A stretch of DNA of 64,000 nt. Source: Sphingobacteriaceae bacterium (GTDB lineage: Bacteria > Bacteroidota > Bacteroidia > UBA7662). Shown here piece by piece: positions 23,866-30,176 of this stretch. The stretch spans positions 14,610 through 78,609 of the forward strand of contig PNNG01000022.1 of assembly GCA_013824115.1 (NCBI GenBank). Direction: 5' to 3'. Both the position numbers and the translations under genes were made by a program. Numbering within the stretch: the first letter of the stretch is position 1; every line of letters starts with the position of its first letter. The notes under the pieces are model-generated. The model did no database searches. It saw nothing but the letters and a program-made list of their open reading frames with translations, and was not told the DNA's origin.

Positions 23866-26313
23866 TCAGCGTCCCAACACCCTCATATGCCACCACTTCC
23901 CGCTCCCCAACTCCCCCTTCACCACCACCTTCCTCCTCGGTCTTACATCCAAAAAATTGAAATCCAGGGGCGTTTCGGCATCCAGATACAGCTGGCTTAC
24001 CGCTCGGCGGGTGCGAACGGTTAGTTGGTCGCCTTGTTGAACGACACGCACCTTGGCGGCCGGCCAGTGCAACTCCTTGGGCGACAGGGGCGATAAAAAG
24101 CGGCCCGTAGGCGCGCCTTGCACTTGTACAAACAATACGGCCTTGCCGCTTTGCAGTTGTTTTTGCCAGCGATTAGGTAGGGGCAGGGCAGCGGTATGCC
24201 TGCCCGCCGCAAGCCGAATATTGAATCGCCTTCCGCCTTTGCGTAACCAACCGCCGGGTTTCCAAAGTTCGACCAGCAGGGTGGCCGTACTGTCGGTGGG
24301 CAAGTCGCCCAAAACGAGTACTTCAAGTCCGTATGAACTGCTGTGCAACACCGGTAAAATGGGCGCGTACAAATGCTGCAGGGCGTAATAACCGGCTTTG
24401 GGCCGACCGTAATAATCTACCACACTCCACGAAATGCCCGGCCAGGCATCGTTGAACTGCCAGGGCAGGGTTCCCATGCATTTTTCTTGCTGGCGGTGGG
24501 CTTCAATGGCTATTTGCAGGGCGCGGACTTGCAACAACTGGGTGGCATAGGCGTAAGCAGCCAGGCTATCGAACTTCCCGAAATCGCGCTCCAGGTAGGT
24601 GTTCAGGGTCTCAAAGCCGGTGGGGTGCTTTTGCTTGGTACGCAAGGCCTGACTTTGCAGGCCGGGACGATCTTCTCCCGTCATCTGCTGCAAACTGCGC
24701 CAAACGGGCAAGGCCTGCATGCCGTATTCCGATACAAAACGGCCGGTTTTTCGGCGGTATGTTTCGAGCGAATCACGTCCCCACCATACGCCCCAATAAT
24801 GCACATCGCCTTCCTGGTATGCCCGTTCGCGTCCCCAACCGTTGAGGGGCGACGAGTGGGAATAGGAGCGGTCGGGGTCGTATTGCCGCACCAAAGCCAG
24901 CAGCTCACGCTGAAACAGCTGTTGGTAGGCTTGTAATACAGCCAGACTGTCAGCAGGCGAGTGTCCGAGCTGTTTTTGCCAGCCCCAATTGAACCAGCCT
25001 TCGTAGTTTTCGTTATTGCCGCACCACAGGGCCAGGCTGGTGTAAGGGCGCAAACGCAATAACTGTTCGGTGGCTTCGCGCCGCACCGAGGCCACAAAAG
25101 CCGAATCGCCGGGGTACATGGCGCAGGCAAAGGCAAAATCTTGCCATACGAGCAAACCCAGCTGGTCGGCGCTTTCCATCAAAGCATCGCTGGCATAATC
25201 GCCTCCGCCCCAAACGCGGATGAGGTTCATGTGCGCCTTTTGTGCCAGCTGCAGCAGGTTGGAGTCGGGGAGGGCTAGGCTATCGTTAACCAAACGTGAA
25301 CGGGGAATGTAGTTGATGCCTTTGATAAAGAGGGGACGGTTATTCACCAGAATATAAAACGAGCGCCCAAAGTCGTCGGCTTCTTGCACCAGCTCTACCG
25401 TGCGGATACCCACCTTGTTTTCATATCGCTGCACCACCACATCGCCTTGTAGCAAATAGGCTTCCAAGCGGTGCAAAAAGGCTTCGCCCGAACCATTGGG
25501 CCACCAAAGTTTGGGGTGGGGGATGTATAAATCGACTTCGAGCAAGCTGTCGGTCGGTTCCAGATCGATGGCCTTGGTCACATAGCGTTGGCCATCGCCC
25601 AGCAACAACACCAATTGTCCGCCCGGCTGCGCCCCGTGCACCACCGTACTCACCCTCAACACGGCCACTGTATCCTCTAGCCGCATGGTACGGAAATGCC
25701 AGTGCTTGAGTTCGGTCTGCTGCTTCGTTTCCACCAGGCGCACTTCGCCGGTGATGCCACCAGCCAGCAACTTCGGGCCCCAGTCCCAACCAAAATGCCA
25801 GGCGGGCTTGCGCACAAAAACACGGTGGCTTTCGGGCAAGGCTTGTGGATATTGGCTGCGCAGCGAATCGTTGGTGGCTTGGATGGGCCGAATTTCAACT
25901 TGCAGCAAATTGCTTCCTGCACGGGTTGCTTTGCTGAGCAAAAATTGGTGGCTGTGGAAGGCGTTGCCCGTTCGGCCGAGCAATTGTCCGTTGAGGTAGA
26001 TGCGAGCGTCGGTGTCGATGCGATCGAAATGCAGGGCCAGCCCGCTATCGGCTAACTGATCGGCCGTCAGTTCAAAGCGGGAGTGGTACCACCACGACAG
26101 GGTGTCGGCCCATTGCCAGCGGGCTTCCAAGGCGGGATGGGTGTAGGGCGGTAGTTTGCCTGCCAGGGTGAGGCTTTCGTAGATGGTGCCGGGTACTTGG
26201 CCGTTGAAGGTATCGGGTAGGGAAGGACTGCTGAGCTGCCAATCCTTGATAATGGTTTGGGCGTCGGTTGTTTGGAACAAACCGAAGAGGAGGCAGCAGA
26301 GCAGGAGCTTCAT
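23866..26313 (-). CDS. GH2 beta-mannosidase
   Basis: 815 aa with a signal peptide (MKLLLCCLLFGLFQTTDAQ). GH2 beta-mannosidase-like regions (…NMIRVWGGGDYASD…, …WCGNNENYEGW…, …VSEYGMQALP…). Confidence 0.8.
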   Translation of the reverse strand: MKLLLCCLLFGLFQTTDAQTIIKDWQLSSPSLPDTFNGQVPGTIYESLTLAGKLPPYTHPALEARWQWADTLSWWYHSRFELTADQLADSGLALHFDRIDTDARIYLNGQLLGRTGNAFHSHQFLLSKATRAGSNLLQVEIRPIQATNDSLRSQYPQALPESHRVFVRKPAWHFGWDWGPKLLAGGITGEVRLVETKQQTELKHWHFRTMRLEDTVAVLRVSTVVHGAQPGGQLVLLLGDGQRYVTKAIDLEPTDSLLEVDLYIPHPKLWWPNGSGEAFLHRLEAYLLQGDVVVQRYENKVGIRTVELVQEADDFGRSFYILVNNRPLFIKGINYIPRSRLVNDSLALPDSNLLQLAQKAHMNLIRVWGGGDYASDALMESADQLGLLVWQDFAFACAMYPGDSAFVASVRREATEQLLRLRPYTSLALWCGNNENYEGWFNWGWQKQLGHSPADSLAVLQAYQQLFQRELLALVRQYDPDRSYSHSSPLNGWGRERAYQEGDVHYWGVWWGRDSLETYRRKTGRFVSEYGMQALPVWRSLQQMTGEDRPGLQSQALRTKQKHPTGFETLNTYLERDFGKFDSLAAYAYATQLLQVRALQIAIEAHRQQEKCMGTLPWQFNDAWPGISWSVVDYYGRPKAGYYALQHLYAPILPVLHSSSYGLEVLVLGDLPTDSTATLLVELWKPGGWLRKGGRRFNIRLAAGRHTAALPLPNRWQKQLQSGKAVLFVQVQGAPTGRFLSPLSPKELHWPAAKVRVVQQGDQLTVRTRRAVSQLYLDAETPLDFNFLDVRPRRKVVVKGELGSGKWWHMRVLGR

Positions 26314-26442
26314 TGGGCTAAAATACGGGAATTTTTACCGCAGAGACACGGAGGAGTTATTGGAGCATGAATGGCCGATTGCAGTGATTGAACCATTCGC
26401 ATCACGGAATAGCTCCCATTTGGTGCATGCAAAGGCTGCACG

Positions 26443-27485
26443 CAGGCCGCGCGTTTCGACTACGCTCAACGACCGGCAGAGGCTTTTGCCTAGGCCGCTA
26501 AAGCGGCTTGGCCGGAGAACGCGGAGGGTTGCTGCAGGAATTAAACCCCACGGATGGCAGGGGTTTGCAAGGCGGAGGGAGGGTGTATTTGATGCTGCTG
26601 ACCGAGCAGTTTGGAGTTTTATGGATGATCATTTCTTTAACGGCTCATAAAAGCCCCAGGGTGGCGGCATGTGTGTAGCACCAGGGTGCCCCCCAAATTT
26701 CAAAGAGCCCTGGAGGGGCGCCATGTGGGACCCTAACCAGGATGCATGTTGGGTTGTCCAAGATTTTTTAAATCCACCGACATCATTTGATCGCACATCG
26801 CACCCCTCCGGGGTGCAAAAAGGTAGGGTGTGTTTGCGGTTCTACACACATGTCGCCCCTCTGGGGCTCAGCGGCTAGGTTTTGTTTGAATGACACACAT
26901 GCCGCCCCTCCGGGGCTCAGCGGCTAGGTTTTGTTTGGTCACTAGCAGGCCGCGCGTTTCGACTACGCTCAACGACCGGCGGAGGTTTTTGGCCCACGCC
27001 GCAAAAGCGGCTTGGCCAGAGAACGCGGAGGGTTGTGGCGGGAATTTAACCCCACGGATGGCTGGGGTTTGCAACGCGGTGGGAGGATGTAATTGATTTT
27101 GCTTATCGAGCAGCGTGGTGTTTTTGGTCATTTCTTTAACGGCACGCAAATAGCCCCAGGGGGGCGGCATGTGCGTAGCATCAAGGTGCCCCCAAATTTC
27201 AAAGCGCCCTGGAGGGGCGCCATGTGGGACCCTAACCAGGATGCATGTTGGGTTGGTCAAGATTTTTTAAATCCACCGACATCATTTGATCGCACATCGC
27301 ACCCCGCTGGGGTGCAAAAAGGTAGGGTGTGTTTGCGGTGCTACGCAGATTCCACCCCTCCGGGGTTCAGCGGCTAAGTTTTGTTTAGATTACGCACATG
27401 TCGCCCTTCCAGGGCTCAGCGGCTAGGTTTTGTTTGGTCACTAGCAGGCCGCGCGTTTCGACTACGCTCAAGGACCGGCGGAGGC
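26443..27485. repeat. Tandem ~500-bp repeat: 2 full units (26443-26945, 26946-27444) plus the first ~40 bp of a third
   Basis: Unit starts caggccgcgcgtttcgactacgctcaa at 26443, 26946 and 27445 (periods 503 and 499). Copies are highly similar by eye, with substitutions and small indels. Each unit ends in two 49-bp subrepeats (cacacatgYcgcccctccggggctcagcggctaggttttgtttgaatga). Confidence 0.9.
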
Positions 27486-27592
27486 TATTCTGTCAGCATC
27501 CAAAGAAGTCCGCGGAGCTAAAAGCTTTGGTTTTGCTTGCCCCTGGCTGTGGAGGGATAAAAAAACATTTCGTACCTTTCGAAAAAAGCGCC

Positions 27593-27775
27593 ATGCTTAA
27601 TAAAGATTCCGTCATCAAAACTGTTCAGACTTTTCCGGATAAATTTTCGGTGGATGAATTGGTCGATAAAATGATACTGCTCGACAAGATTGAGAAGGGG
27701 ATTCAACAAGCCGAAAACAACGAGGTCGTTAGCGAAGAAGAGTTTGATAAAAAACTCGACGAATGGCTAAAATAG
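27593..27775 (+). CDS. Type II antitoxin candidate (60 aa)
   Basis: ATG at 27593: MLNKDSVIKTVQTFPDKFSVDELVDKMILLDKIEKGIQQAENNEVVSEEEFDKKLDEWLK. Overlaps the toxin gene by 13 nt. The longer track ORF (27398) starts inside repeat sequence. Confidence 0.6.
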   Translation: MLNKDSVIKTVQTFPDKFSVDELVDKMILLDKIEKGIQQAENNEVVSEEEFDKKLDEWLK

Positions 27776-28062
27776 TTTGGACAGACCAAGCAACCGTCGA
27801 AATTCGCGACATACTGGATTACATATCCAAAGATTCTCGTCGCTACGCGATAAGTCAAATCAGAAGAATTCAGGGGGCGACCAAAATCTTAAAGAGCAAA
27901 CCACTTGCAGGGCGAACGGTTCCTGAATTAGGTGACCAAACCATCAGAGAACTCATAGAGGGTAATTACAGAATTGTTTATCGGGTTAAAGATGTGGAGC
28001 TGATTGAGATTTTGACTGTTCATCATACAGCCCGTGATTTTCAATCACGTTTGTTCGGATAA
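27763..28062 (+). CDS. ParE/RelE-family type II toxin
   Basis: 99 aa. WTDQATVEIRDILDYISKDS…IRELIEGNYRIVYRVKDVELIEILTVHHTARDF matches the ParE/RelE pattern. Confidence 0.75.
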   Translation: MAKIVWTDQATVEIRDILDYISKDSRRYAISQIRRIQGATKILKSKPLAGRTVPELGDQTIRELIEGNYRIVYRVKDVELIEILTVHHTARDFQSRLFG

Positions 28063-28070
28063 TTCGTAAA

Positions 28071-28262
28071 AGCATCGAATTTTTTGATCGCTCATCGCCC
28101 TCCAGGGTGCGAAAAGGGTGGGGTGTGTTTGCGGTTCTACACACATGTCGCCCCTCCGGGGCTCAGCGGCTAGGTTTTGTTTGAATGACACACATGCCGC
28201 CCCTCCGGGGCTCAGCGGCTAGGTTTTGTTTGAATGACACACATGTCGCCCTCCGGGGCTTA
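28071..28262. repeat. 3' portion of a third ~500-bp repeat unit, including about 2.5 copies of the 49-bp subrepeat
   Basis: 28071-28140 aligns with unit positions around 26780-26845 (…tttgatcgc.catcgc.ccctcc.ggGtgc.aaaaGGt.gggtgtgtttgcggttctac). Subrepeats start at 28140, 28189 and 28238. The last one runs into the dnaG stop. Confidence 0.85.
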
Positions 28263-30176
28263 GTGACTAATGTGCGTCCCCAGCTTTTGGGCGAGGGTGC
28301 GGTGCACTTCTTTCAGCGCCACAAATTCTTCCAAATCGGCTTGCGCACTTTCTTCGTTTTCAGGATGCTTGAGCCTTTCCATGGTTTGATTCATCAGCGA
28401 AATGACTTTTTTCAAATTCAGCCGATCAACCGCACTGCTTACATCCTGGTGTATCATGCTTGCCCTACTGGGGGTGAGAATGTCGTGCCGCTTTTCCCAA
28501 TTTTCACTTACCGAATAGTCGATACTGTAAATGTGTAAAGCCAAGGCAGCGAGACTTTTATCGGGATGATTAAACAAATCGTTTCGGTCGGCAATGCGCT
28601 GTTCTTCTTTCCAGCTTTTTTCAAAAATCCGGAAAATGCTTTCCATCGGAGCATTATCCCAGCTCAATTCGTCGAGCGTATTCACTACAAAATCAATCAC
28701 CAAAACATCGTCGGTATAGGGCTCTTGGGCGTAATGCAATAAAATGCGAATGATATCGGCTTCTTGCGGCTCGTCGTTGAGTACGGGCGACTGGGGTTCG
28801 GCTGGCAAAGCTACCGAGGGCATGGCTTCTATCGACTCCCGCTCACTCGGCCGCACTCTTTTCATGCGATTGAGGTGGTGCTGTTGTACAGCTTGTATGA
28901 ATAGTTGCTCAGTGATGTCGAGCATTGCTGCCGTACTACTGCTGTAAGTGGCCCGCACAATGGGGTCGCCAATGAAGCTTACCGTTTCGGCCATGTCGTG
29001 GATGACCTCGGCCCGTTTCATGGGGTCGCCAGCGGCTTCGGTGAGCAGCAGGTTTACTTTAAAGCGCACAAAATCTACCGTTTGCTCGGCCAGGTAGTCG
29101 CGGAAAGCGGGTCCGCCCAATTGCCTGCTGTATGAATCGGGGTCCTCTCCCTCGGGCAGTGGCACTACCGATACCTGCAGGTTGTTTTCGAGCAGGATGT
29201 TGATGCCGCGCAACGAAGCCTTGATGCCGGCAGCATCGCCATCGTAAATCACCGTTACCTTTTTGCTGAAGCGATGGATCAATCGGGCCTGTTCATGGGT
29301 GAGTGAGGTGCCCGAACTGGCGGCTACGTTCTCAATGCCGGCCTGGTGCAAACCAATTACATCGGTATAGCCTTCTACCAGGTAGCAGTTTTCGTTTTTC
29401 TGAATGGCCTTCTTGGCCTGGAACAAGCCATACAGCGTTTCGCTCTTTTTGTACAGGAGCGTTTCGGGCGAGTTGAGGTACTTGGCCTCTTTTTTATCGT
29501 TTTTAAGGATGCGCCCGCCAAAACCGATGACCTTGCCGCTGAGGTTGTAAAACGGAAAAATCACCCGACCCCGGAAACGGTCCATGATCTTGTCGCTCTG
29601 GGTGTGGATGCTCAAGCCCGAGGCTTCTAATTCTGCCTGACTAAAATCACTGGTGAGCGCCATCCGGCTCAGCGCATCGAAACTGTCGGGCGAGTAGCCC
29701 AAACCAAATTTTTCGATGCTTTCGTCGGTGATGCCACGCTCTTTGAAATAACTGAGGCCTATGGCCTTGCCGTCGTCGGTTTCGGTGAGCTGCAGGTGAA
29801 AATATTGCTGGGCAAAGGCATGCAAGGCATACTGCCGGTCGCGCTCGCTGAGCTCTTGTTTGTGCTGCTCGCTGAGCTCGCGGGTTTCTTCCTCCACCTC
29901 CAGGTTGTAACGCTGCGCCAGCTGACGGATGGCATCTGGATAGGTGAGGTGCTCGTGCTCCATCAAGAAGCCCACCGAATTGCCCGAGGCACCACAGCCG
30001 AAACATTTGTAGATGCCCTTGGCAGGGGTGACGGTGAAGCTGGGCGATTTTTCGTTGTGGAACGGACACAGCCCAATGTAATTGCCGCCCCGTTTTTTCA
30101 AAGTCACGAAATCGCCCACCACCTCCTCAATGCGGGCGGTGTCCATCACACGGTCGATGGTGCTGCGGCTGATCAT
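28260..30176 (-). CDS. dnaG: DNA primase
   Basis: 638 aa. Zinc-ribbon CPFHNEKSPSFTVTPAKGIYKCFGCGASG. Toprim region EGYTDVIGLHQAGIENVAASSGTSLT. Confidence 0.95.
   Translation of the reverse strand: MISRSTIDRVMDTARIEEVVGDFVTLKKRGGNYIGLCPFHNEKSPSFTVTPAKGIYKCFGCGASGNSVGFLMEHEHLTYPDAIRQLAQRYNLEVEEETRELSEQHKQELSERDRQYALHAFAQQYFHLQLTETDDGKAIGLSYFKERGITDESIEKFGLGYSPDSFDALSRMALTSDFSQAELEASGLSIHTQSDKIMDRFRGRVIFPFYNLSGKVIGFGGRILKNDKKEAKYLNSPETLLYKKSETLYGLFQAKKAIQKNENCYLVEGYTDVIGLHQAGIENVAASSGTSLTHEQARLIHRFSKKVTVIYDGDAAGIKASLRGINILLENNLQVSVVPLPEGEDPDSYSRQLGGPAFRDYLAEQTVDFVRFKVNLLLTEAAGDPMKRAEVIHDMAETVSFIGDPIVRATYSSSTAAMLDITEQLFIQAVQQHHLNRMKRVRPSERESIEAMPSVALPAEPQSPVLNDEPQEADIIRILLHYAQEPYTDDVLVIDFVVNTLDELSWDNAPMESIFRIFEKSWKEEQRIADRNDLFNHPDKSLAALALHIYSIDYSVSENWEKRHDILTPSRASMIHQDVSSAVDRLNLKKVISLMNQTMERLKHPENEESAQADLEEFVALKEVHRTLAQKLGTHISH

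Follow-up and report, generated by a model that had tools for sequence, protein, structure and literature searches.

A probable mosaic of dispersed repeats, tandemly duplicated and carrying a toxin-antitoxin cassette, beside dnaG in a Sphingobacteriaceae genome, and a hairpin repeat that may belong to an IS200-like Y1 transposase

We analysed a stretch of 64,000 nucleotides from a Sphingobacteriaceae bacterium (GenBank assembly GCA_013824115.1, contig PNNG01000022.1), which we call the window, and in it the 1.95-kb spacer between a gene for a glycoside hydrolase family 2 (GH2) glycosidase (23866-26313, minus strand; called from its Pfam GH2 domains) and dnaG (28260-30176, minus strand). We read the repeated block in this spacer, with a probability of roughly 0.7, as a mosaic of dispersed intergenic repeats similar to the bacterial interspersed mosaic elements (BIMEs), which was tandemly duplicated and later given a horizontally acquired toxin-antitoxin (TA) cassette. 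The repeats belong mainly to two families: REP-1, a hairpin repeat of the repetitive extragenic palindrome (REP) kind, and A, a dispersed element of ~180 nt. Judged from its sequence context, REP-1 would be the cognate repeat of an IS200-like Y1 (HUH) transposase of subclass 1.2. The draft genome that was searched is metagenome-assembled and comprises 2.84 Mb in 40 contigs (labelled C) with a completeness of 85%. Relatives are labelled G001, G002, G003, G004 etc., and the comparison covers 31 genomes in all, including this one.

The architecture of the block is displayed in Table 1. Alignment of the spacer gave two tandem units of ~500 bp that are 88% identical, and a third that begins at 27445. 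The unit starts are the ones that the first-pass annotation had proposed (26443, 26946 and 27445), and the third unit is indeed reduced to a head of ~40 nt (27445-27485) and a tail of ~190 nt (~28071-28262) on either side of the TA pair. The two 49-bp subrepeats said to close each unit were recovered by Tandem Repeats Finder (TRF) at 26844-26937 (1.9 copies) and 28139-28260 (2.5 copies); the pair in unit 2 is a diverged copy (87%). The hairpin motif was found in both orientations where the annotation had placed it, with forward copies at about 26794, 26847, 26896, 27346, 27395, 28142, 28191 and 28238 and inverted copies at about 26652, 26706, 27152 and 27205. Its 26-mer has six matches in the window compared to 0 expected from shuffles. 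The frame-shifting indel in a run of Cs (CCCCCC/CCCCC) between units 1 and 2 is also real in the alignment.

The repeated material starts upstream of 26443 with a full copy of A, and the start of unit 1 lies in the middle of this copy. The 5' end of the copy is 21 nt from the GH2 start codon; it could be aligned with 11 other copies from the genome and is orthologous to the A copy at the same site in G002. BLAST of the units against the draft genome found no second copy of a whole unit, whereas the modules recur at other loci: the first ~45-85 nt of the units match about a dozen loci and the hairpin regions match others. By extending the matches of the unit head we recognised it as the 3' half of the dispersed A element, which makes up the first ~90 bp of each unit.

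Table 1. Features of the repeat block between the GH2 gene and dnaG (positions in the window).
Feature	Position	Strand	Remarks
Complete A copy, long subtype with ~22-nt TTTCGACTACGCTCAACGAC insert	26334..26532	+	covariance model 84.3 bits, E = 2.9e-23, model 1-180
Tandem unit 1: A 3' half, small hairpin, inverted REP doublet, spacer, double-headed REP, forward REP doublet	26443..26945	+	
Small hairpin CCCCACGGATGGCAGGGG	26546..26563	.	variant CCCCCGGATGGCCGGGG lies 5' of several A copies at other loci of the genome
Inverted REP-1 doublet of unit 1: hairpin, then CATGTG..GTAG (26652-26682 and 26705-26731)	26652..26731	-	
Double-headed REP CACATC-GCACCCC-TCC-GGGGTGC-AAAAAGGTAGGG	26791..26835	.	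resembles the REP variant beside the second Y1 gene (contig C4)
Forward REP-1 doublet of unit 1: two 49-bp subrepeats	26838..26937	+	
Tandem unit 2, module order as in unit 1	26946..27444	+	covariance model matches its A 3' half at 26954-27036
Unit-3 head: ~40 nt like units 1 and 2, then the 3' end of another A subtype, with internal deletion	27445..27525	+	
Antitoxin candidate, 60 aa	27593..27775	+	G+C 0.385
ParE/RelE-fold toxin, 99 aa	27763..28062	+	PF05016, G+C 0.42
Unit-3 tail: diverged double-headed REP, then three forward REP-1 copies	28071..28262	+	

REP-1 has the form GCTAC-N2-4-CAYATGYCGCCCC-loop-GGGGCT, so that on the opposite strand it consists of a GC hairpin of 5 bp, ~9 nt and the tag GTAG. 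The motif in the window (GCTAC/TCTAC-ACACATGYCGCCCC-TCC-GGGGCT) forms one family with the repeats on contig C40 that are described below. A loose search, allowing at most five mismatches to a 22-mer, detected 42 copies genome-wide. They occur mostly as direct doublets with copies 49-55 nt apart, which correspond to the "49-bp subrepeat", and as tandem arrays, and the copies that we inspected are all intergenic. The exact pattern was observed 20 times in this genome, twice in G002 and 0-1 times in each of the 29 other relatives; the reversed pattern, which served as the control, gave 0 matches. GTAG (CTAC on the other strand) is present both in the copies of this genome and in the homologous loci across the phylum. 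We also folded the stretch 26640-26945 as single-stranded DNA and obtained nested hairpins with z = -5.2, in which an inverted and a forward doublet are combined in the manner of BIMEs or of REP doublets forming hairpins (REPINs). For the fold check proposed in the first-pass annotation, the nesting of the REP pairs is the positive part; the A element (z ~ -0.7) folds no better than shuffles. Ten REP-1 copies, all in one orientation, form a tandem array at C20:20940-21464 with a composite period of ~112-123 nt, and smaller periodic REP clusters were found at C8:40560-40960 and C24:19680-20080. Higher-order tandem amplification seems to be typical of the REP-1 family and not peculiar to the dnaG locus.

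There are three Y1 genes (PF01797, Y1_Tnp) in this genome, which are 53-62% identical. Upstream of the gene on contig C40 we found three inverted copies of AGCCCCnnnnGGGGYGACATCTGGGTAGC, in parts AGCCCC-nnnn-GGGGYGACATCTGGGTAGC, and downstream of it four forward copies of GCTACCCATATGCCGCCCCTGACGGGGCT, which are the reverse complement, GCTACCCATATGCCGCCCC-TGAC-GGGGCT. The GTAG heads point towards the Y1 gene from both sides. The remaining two Y1 genes carry repeat variants of their own. Among the 31 genomes the C40-type gene is confined to this one, the next best match being 65% identical, and the same is true for REP-1, i.e. gene and repeat co-occur. The Y1 gene of G002 has its own inverted hairpin-plus-ATAG repeats on its flanks. 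We looked for a perfect hairpin-plus-GTAG in the flanks of the Y1 genes of G001 and G003 and did not find one there.

The same design can be seen across the phylum. In a species-representative collection the Y1 protein family has 454 relatives from Bacteroidota together with Ignavibacteria and Balneolaceae, and the nearest homologues come from metagenome-assembled genomes (MAGs) of Chitinophagales and Saprospiraceae. For the phylum-wide count we used the 71 loci with both flanks and scored a 5-bp hairpin that is followed by GTAG 3-14 nt later. Upstream of the genes the hairpin-GTAG pointed at the gene at 32 of the 71 loci compared to 9 in the reversed direction; downstream the figures were 33 and 22. 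A typical repeat reads GTCCC-GTTA-GGGAC-nnAATATYGGTAGA. The likeness to widespread repeats of Bacteroidota that the annotation had pointed out holds, in that homologous Y1 genes from across the phylum are flanked by repeats built in the same way, a hairpin plus GTAG. All three Y1 proteins of this genome show the signature Y---Q--HH of subclass 1.2, and with the IS200 equivalog model NF033573 the Y1 protein scored 82.7 bits at a cut-off of 55. Subclass 1.2 was described as low-copy, occurring in Cyanobacteria and Bacteroidetes, with the entry "REP: no" and generally without terminal hairpins (Quentin et al. 2018, PMC6006769). The hairpin-GTAG repeats tied to subclass 1.2 genes contradict this "no REP" description.

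The toxin gene was identified with Pfam PF05016 (55.4 bits, E = 9.7e-15), and its score of 27.2 bits for TIGR02385 is slightly below the cut-off. The candidate antitoxin gene overlaps it by 13 nt and has no Pfam or NCBIfam match. The G+C content of the pair is 0.39-0.42 compared to 0.56 for the repeats. No orthologue of the TA pair was detected in the relatives, where the best toxin homologues are 50% and 42% identical and lie at other loci with no A or REP nearby; the exact toxin sequence is not on record in public assemblies. The cassette sits at the 3' end of dnaG and is bracketed by the dispersed repeats A and REP, not by a duplicated gene end. We also noted a 7-bp hairpin, CGTGATTTTCAATCACG, within the last codons of the toxin gene (28033-28049), followed by TTTGTT, which might serve to terminate the TA operon, convergent with dnaG. 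Just 5' of the antitoxin start (27556-27592) lies TTTCGTACCTTTCGAAA, an imperfect palindrome beside a TAnnTTTG-like box; a role of these as promoter and operator for TA autoregulation is plausible.

In order to follow the history of the locus we compared it to G002, where GH2 and dnaG are still neighbours (DnaG 85% protein identity, GH2 78% DNA identity). The spacer between them is only ~440 nt long; in it lie the orthologue of the window copy, A(+), and, directly behind the dnaG stop codon, another copy, A(-). Neither REP-1 nor tandem units nor a TA pair were found in this G002 spacer, and thus the REP cluster, the duplication and the TA pair are lineage-specific additions. At the left TA junction the match to units 1 and 2 lasts ~40 nt and then gives way to an A 3' end of another subtype (CTGTCGGCATCTRAAGAAG..CGCAGAG), as seen in copies on contigs C14, C17 and C3. 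At the right junction the unit-tail homology returns in a diverged REP, and from 28112 the identity to unit 1 is 97.5% (28112-28232: 97.5% to unit 1, 86% to unit 2). The last REP-1 copy of this tail adjoins the dnaG stop codon (28260-28262, minus strand).

These observations can be arranged into a possible course of events. By analogy with TnpA(REP) and IS608, the Y1 enzyme would recognise the folded hairpin on single-stranded DNA and cut near the tag. Such cutting would allow REP doublets to spread into intergenic DNA, here up to the dnaG stop codon, and an inverted doublet together with a forward doublet would give the nested REPIN-like hairpin. The ancestral spacer would have resembled that of G002, with A(+) and then a short spacer, and would have been invaded by REP-1 in the next step. 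Unequal recombination or replication slippage may then have produced the ~500-bp tandem units. On the simplest reading, a segment of low G+C content from 27486 to ~28111, with the TA pair between an A tail and a REP, would have replaced the interior of unit 3. Recombination within an A copy on one side and a REP on the other, both acting as portable homology, is the probable route by which the TA pair came in.

Several points weigh against this account. The REP-associated transposase model NF047646 gave 32.5 bits at a cut-off of 80, so the enzyme is not a canonical REP-associated tyrosine transposase (RAYT). The tag lies ~9 nt 3' of the hairpin and not directly 5' as in enterobacterial REPs, the Y1 gene of G001 (65% identical) is without obvious flanking REPs, and the link between repeat and enzyme is one of sequence context. 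With regard to the locus, the tails of units 1 and 3 are 97.5% identical but the tail of unit 2 is only 86-87% identical to either. The duplication history was therefore not simply serial, and gene conversion or a more complex history is required. In addition, a donor locus for the TA segment was not found and the assembly is a draft of 40 contigs.

The second repeat family deserves a closer look. A has at least 36 full copies in this genome (nhmmer); with the covariance model we counted 43 copies here, 41 in G001, 51 in G002 and 7 in G003; G004 and the other genera of the family and order gave no match. From 5' to 3', the blocks AACCGCAGAGGCGCAGAGG (5' end), CGAGGnAnCGGAGCC (middle) and CCGGAGGCCGCAGAG (3' end) are conserved. 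The element is built of three CGCAGAG/CGGAG motif doublets and one covarying subterminal hairpin, P4, whose outer stem is paired in 86% and whose inner stem in 92% of cases, with four pairs per stem changed on both sides. For 37 copies from four genomes RNAalifold predicted this hairpin alone, 7 of its 9 pairs being compensatory. The proposed hairpins P2 and P3 were discarded as weak (60% and 81% paired, with little covariation). We also rejected the idea that A is a strongly folded RNA: the mean folding z was ~ -0.7 on both strands, as for shuffles, and RNAalifold supports only P4. The strand of A relative to the genes on its 5' and 3' sides showed no preference (same/same 12, opposite/opposite 12, same/opposite 10, opposite/same 5). 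A scan of 25500-29000 with Rfam at E <= 1 returned no family, only a chance-level miRNA match with E = 0.24.

No A copies adjoining Y1 genes were found and hence there is no evidence that the Y1 enzymes move A; nor does a transposase gene adjoin any of the A copies. We compared 23 A sites of this genome to G002: at nine of them both species carry the element and at six G002 lacks it, and the reverse comparison gave additional sites that are empty in this genome. Approximately 40% of the informative sites are polymorphic between the two sister species. As filled and empty sites differ between the species, A is a young, active or recently active dispersed repeat. The insert blocks measure 250-320 nt, with variable extra sequence and imprecise edges. 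A consistent target-site duplication could not be upheld: ten comparisons of filled and empty sites gave 27-29 nt, 16-20 nt, ~8 nt (about four, weak) and none or a short replacement (four), and the short duplications are unreliable as intergenic DNA between the species is too diverged. Inconsistent duplications and imprecise ends mean that the pattern fits neither DDE transposition, with its fixed short duplications, nor Y1 peel-and-paste, with no duplication and precise ends. It is conceivable, if on balance unlikely, that A represents a new kind of non-autonomous element with an undescribed copy mechanism and that, separately, subclass 1.2 Y1 enzymes and hairpin-GTAG repeats form a phylum-wide partnership of the REPIN-RAYT kind that arose independently from the IS200 branch.

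Other noticeable characteristics of A concern its internal modules and its arrangement. Subfamilies of A contain nested mini-insertions, among them a module of ~22 nt, TTTCGACTWCGCTCAAYGAC(C), which lies within a loop of ~13 copies including the one in the window (26462-26485). It is missing from the orthologous copy in G002, and by itself it occurs in both orientations in a small array at C32:24376-25048. The module has the look of a mini-repeat in its own right, either inserted into A copies or converted between them. The hairpin CCCC(C/A)CGGATGGC(C/A)GGGG is located directly 5' of some A copies (C17, C7, C15) and inside the units of the window (26546-26563), and a tiny hairpin, CCYTAGACCCCGACC..GGGG, stands between two CGCAGAG repeats in two copies (C39:8806, C7:49658). 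Tail-to-tail dimers are frequent in G001 (e.g. C1:63547-63888 and C23:5252-5602) and G002 (C6:166854-167133); their 3' ends are ~8 nt apart or overlap, which creates large imperfect palindromes. Head-to-tail arrays also occur (G002:C11:43068/43304/43540). Several contigs end inside A copies (C5:6-184, C8:16-141, C25:11-110), so the draft breaks at A copies and the true copy number exceeds 43. One copy (C3:115060-115256) lies between PIN-domain-like and Fic/DOC-like open reading frames (ORFs; region C3:113480-116459), and A copies may be enriched near accessory genes.

Next we weighed the block against other explanations. That the units encode structured non-coding RNAs (ncRNAs), either as an array of small RNA (sRNA) genes or as 3' untranslated region (3'-UTR) elements acting on dnaG or TA transcripts, would agree with the compensatory changes that keep the P4 pairing, with an outer stem rich in G.U pairs that favours one strand, and with the many A copies that start 10-30 nt past a stop codon. 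REP hairpins could also lend stability to the convergent transcripts of dnaG and the TA pair, or terminate them. However, the Rfam scan was empty of families, A is neutral in its orientation to neighbouring genes, its folding on both strands is that of shuffles with one covarying hairpin, and it is limited to one genus and polymorphic at many of its sites between two species. We consider this explanation, which the first-pass annotation had raised as a structured ncRNA array, improbable. The annotation had also proposed the ~500-bp unit itself as a non-autonomous transposon similar to miniature inverted-repeat transposable elements (MITEs), bounded by the inverted motif pair and able to carry the TA genes as cargo. 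Such a pair exists (26652-26682 and 26838-26868; 31 nt, 87% complementary, 155-nt core), the region folds strongly and the TA genes lie like cargo between half-units. The pair is internal and not terminal, though, and the TA genes are outside it. Furthermore, according to BLAST of the whole draft genome the unit is not repeated in full or nearly in full anywhere else, and only its modules recur, the left end of the unit is inside an A element, and no target-site duplication was seen. This proposal is largely refuted and to us slightly less probable still than an array of ncRNAs. The broader idea of mobile or recombinogenic elements holds for the modules, which are non-coding, dispersed and probably non-autonomous. 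A general role in cassette capture was not supported either, as TA homologues in relatives are without such flanks and the G002 locus has neither REPs nor TA.

Small cassettes separated by a repeated junction of ~235 bp would suit a site-specific cassette array, integron-like or of another kind, whose junction of unit tail and unit head acts as an attC-type site, and TA pairs are common integron cargo. Here two of the three "cassettes" are the identical kind of non-coding sequence, the junction is composed of two unrelated dispersed families and not of one attC-like palindrome, and the G002 locus is without such a site. The ORF list contains no integrase gene within several kb (no formal attC or intI search was made). 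We regard an array of this kind as very unlikely. An assembly artefact, in which dispersed repeats of a draft MAG were mis-assembled into tandem units, has an equally small chance. The 40 contigs, the completeness of 85% and the contigs that end inside A copies would allow for it, but 12% of the positions disagree between units 1 and 2, indels set them apart as well, and the unique junctions that connect them occur twice. This is not the pattern of collapsed or chimeric repeats. Compared to all of these, a duplicated mosaic of dispersed repeats with an acquired TA cassette remains the best explanation.

REP and BIME repeats together with domesticated transposases are a textbook feature of Proteobacteria. 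The one systematic survey that we found to cover Bacteroidota gives the relevant Y1 subclass 1.2 without REPs and terminal hairpins (Quentin et al. 2018, PMC6006769). This locus, the Y1 genes of the same genome and the 71 loci from the phylum together show that Y1 genes of this subclass do lie within inverted repeats of the hairpin-GTAG type, which are also spread through intergenic DNA. A large class of "orphan" GC hairpin repeats in annotations of Bacteroidota is explained in this way, as are the spurious small ORFs to which they give rise, and the result provides a testable pair of enzyme and substrate. It also illustrates how dispersed repeats can act as portable homology through which local duplications and small accessory cassettes are gained beside essential genes. 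As for the scaffold, it is a product of ordinary repeat dynamics and not a new machine; what goes beyond the ordinary is the link between hairpin-GTAG repeats and subclass 1.2 and the unexplained A family.

The closest known counterpart is the REP/BIME/REPIN-RAYT system of Enterobacteria and Pseudomonas. Both share short GC-rich hairpins with a GTAG tag in tens of extragenic copies, often behind stop codons, clusters of alternating orientation and inverted pairs that fold into long hairpins. In both, a low-copy Y1 HUH gene lies between its own inverted repeats, a genome holds several Y1 genes each with its own repeat variant, and gene and repeat co-occur at the species level. The differences are that the enzyme here belongs to the IS200 branch (subclass 1.2) and not to class 2 RAYTs, that GTAG follows the hairpin at a distance of ~9 nt on the 3' side instead of adjoining it on the 5' side, and that dispersal is based on direct doublets with a spacing of 49-55 nt, with tens of copies, not hundreds. 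With the insertion sequences (IS) of the IS200/IS605 group, e.g. IS608, and the transposase-less palindrome-associated transposable elements (PATEs) the system shares a Y1 HUH transposase of ~150 aa, for which a single-strand mechanism is expected, as well as hairpins in subterminal position, with cleavage here too predicted at ~10 nt from their foot. In contrast to these elements, the flanking repeats here are inverted and not on the same strand, the repeats spread without the gene, and the gene is not multiplied as a unit but is present as three divergent genes. Finally, the cassette resembles type II ParDE/RelBE systems in its 99-aa toxin with the ParE fold that follows a small overlapping antitoxin gene; it differs in that the candidate antitoxin has no match among the described families and that the TA function is a predicted one.

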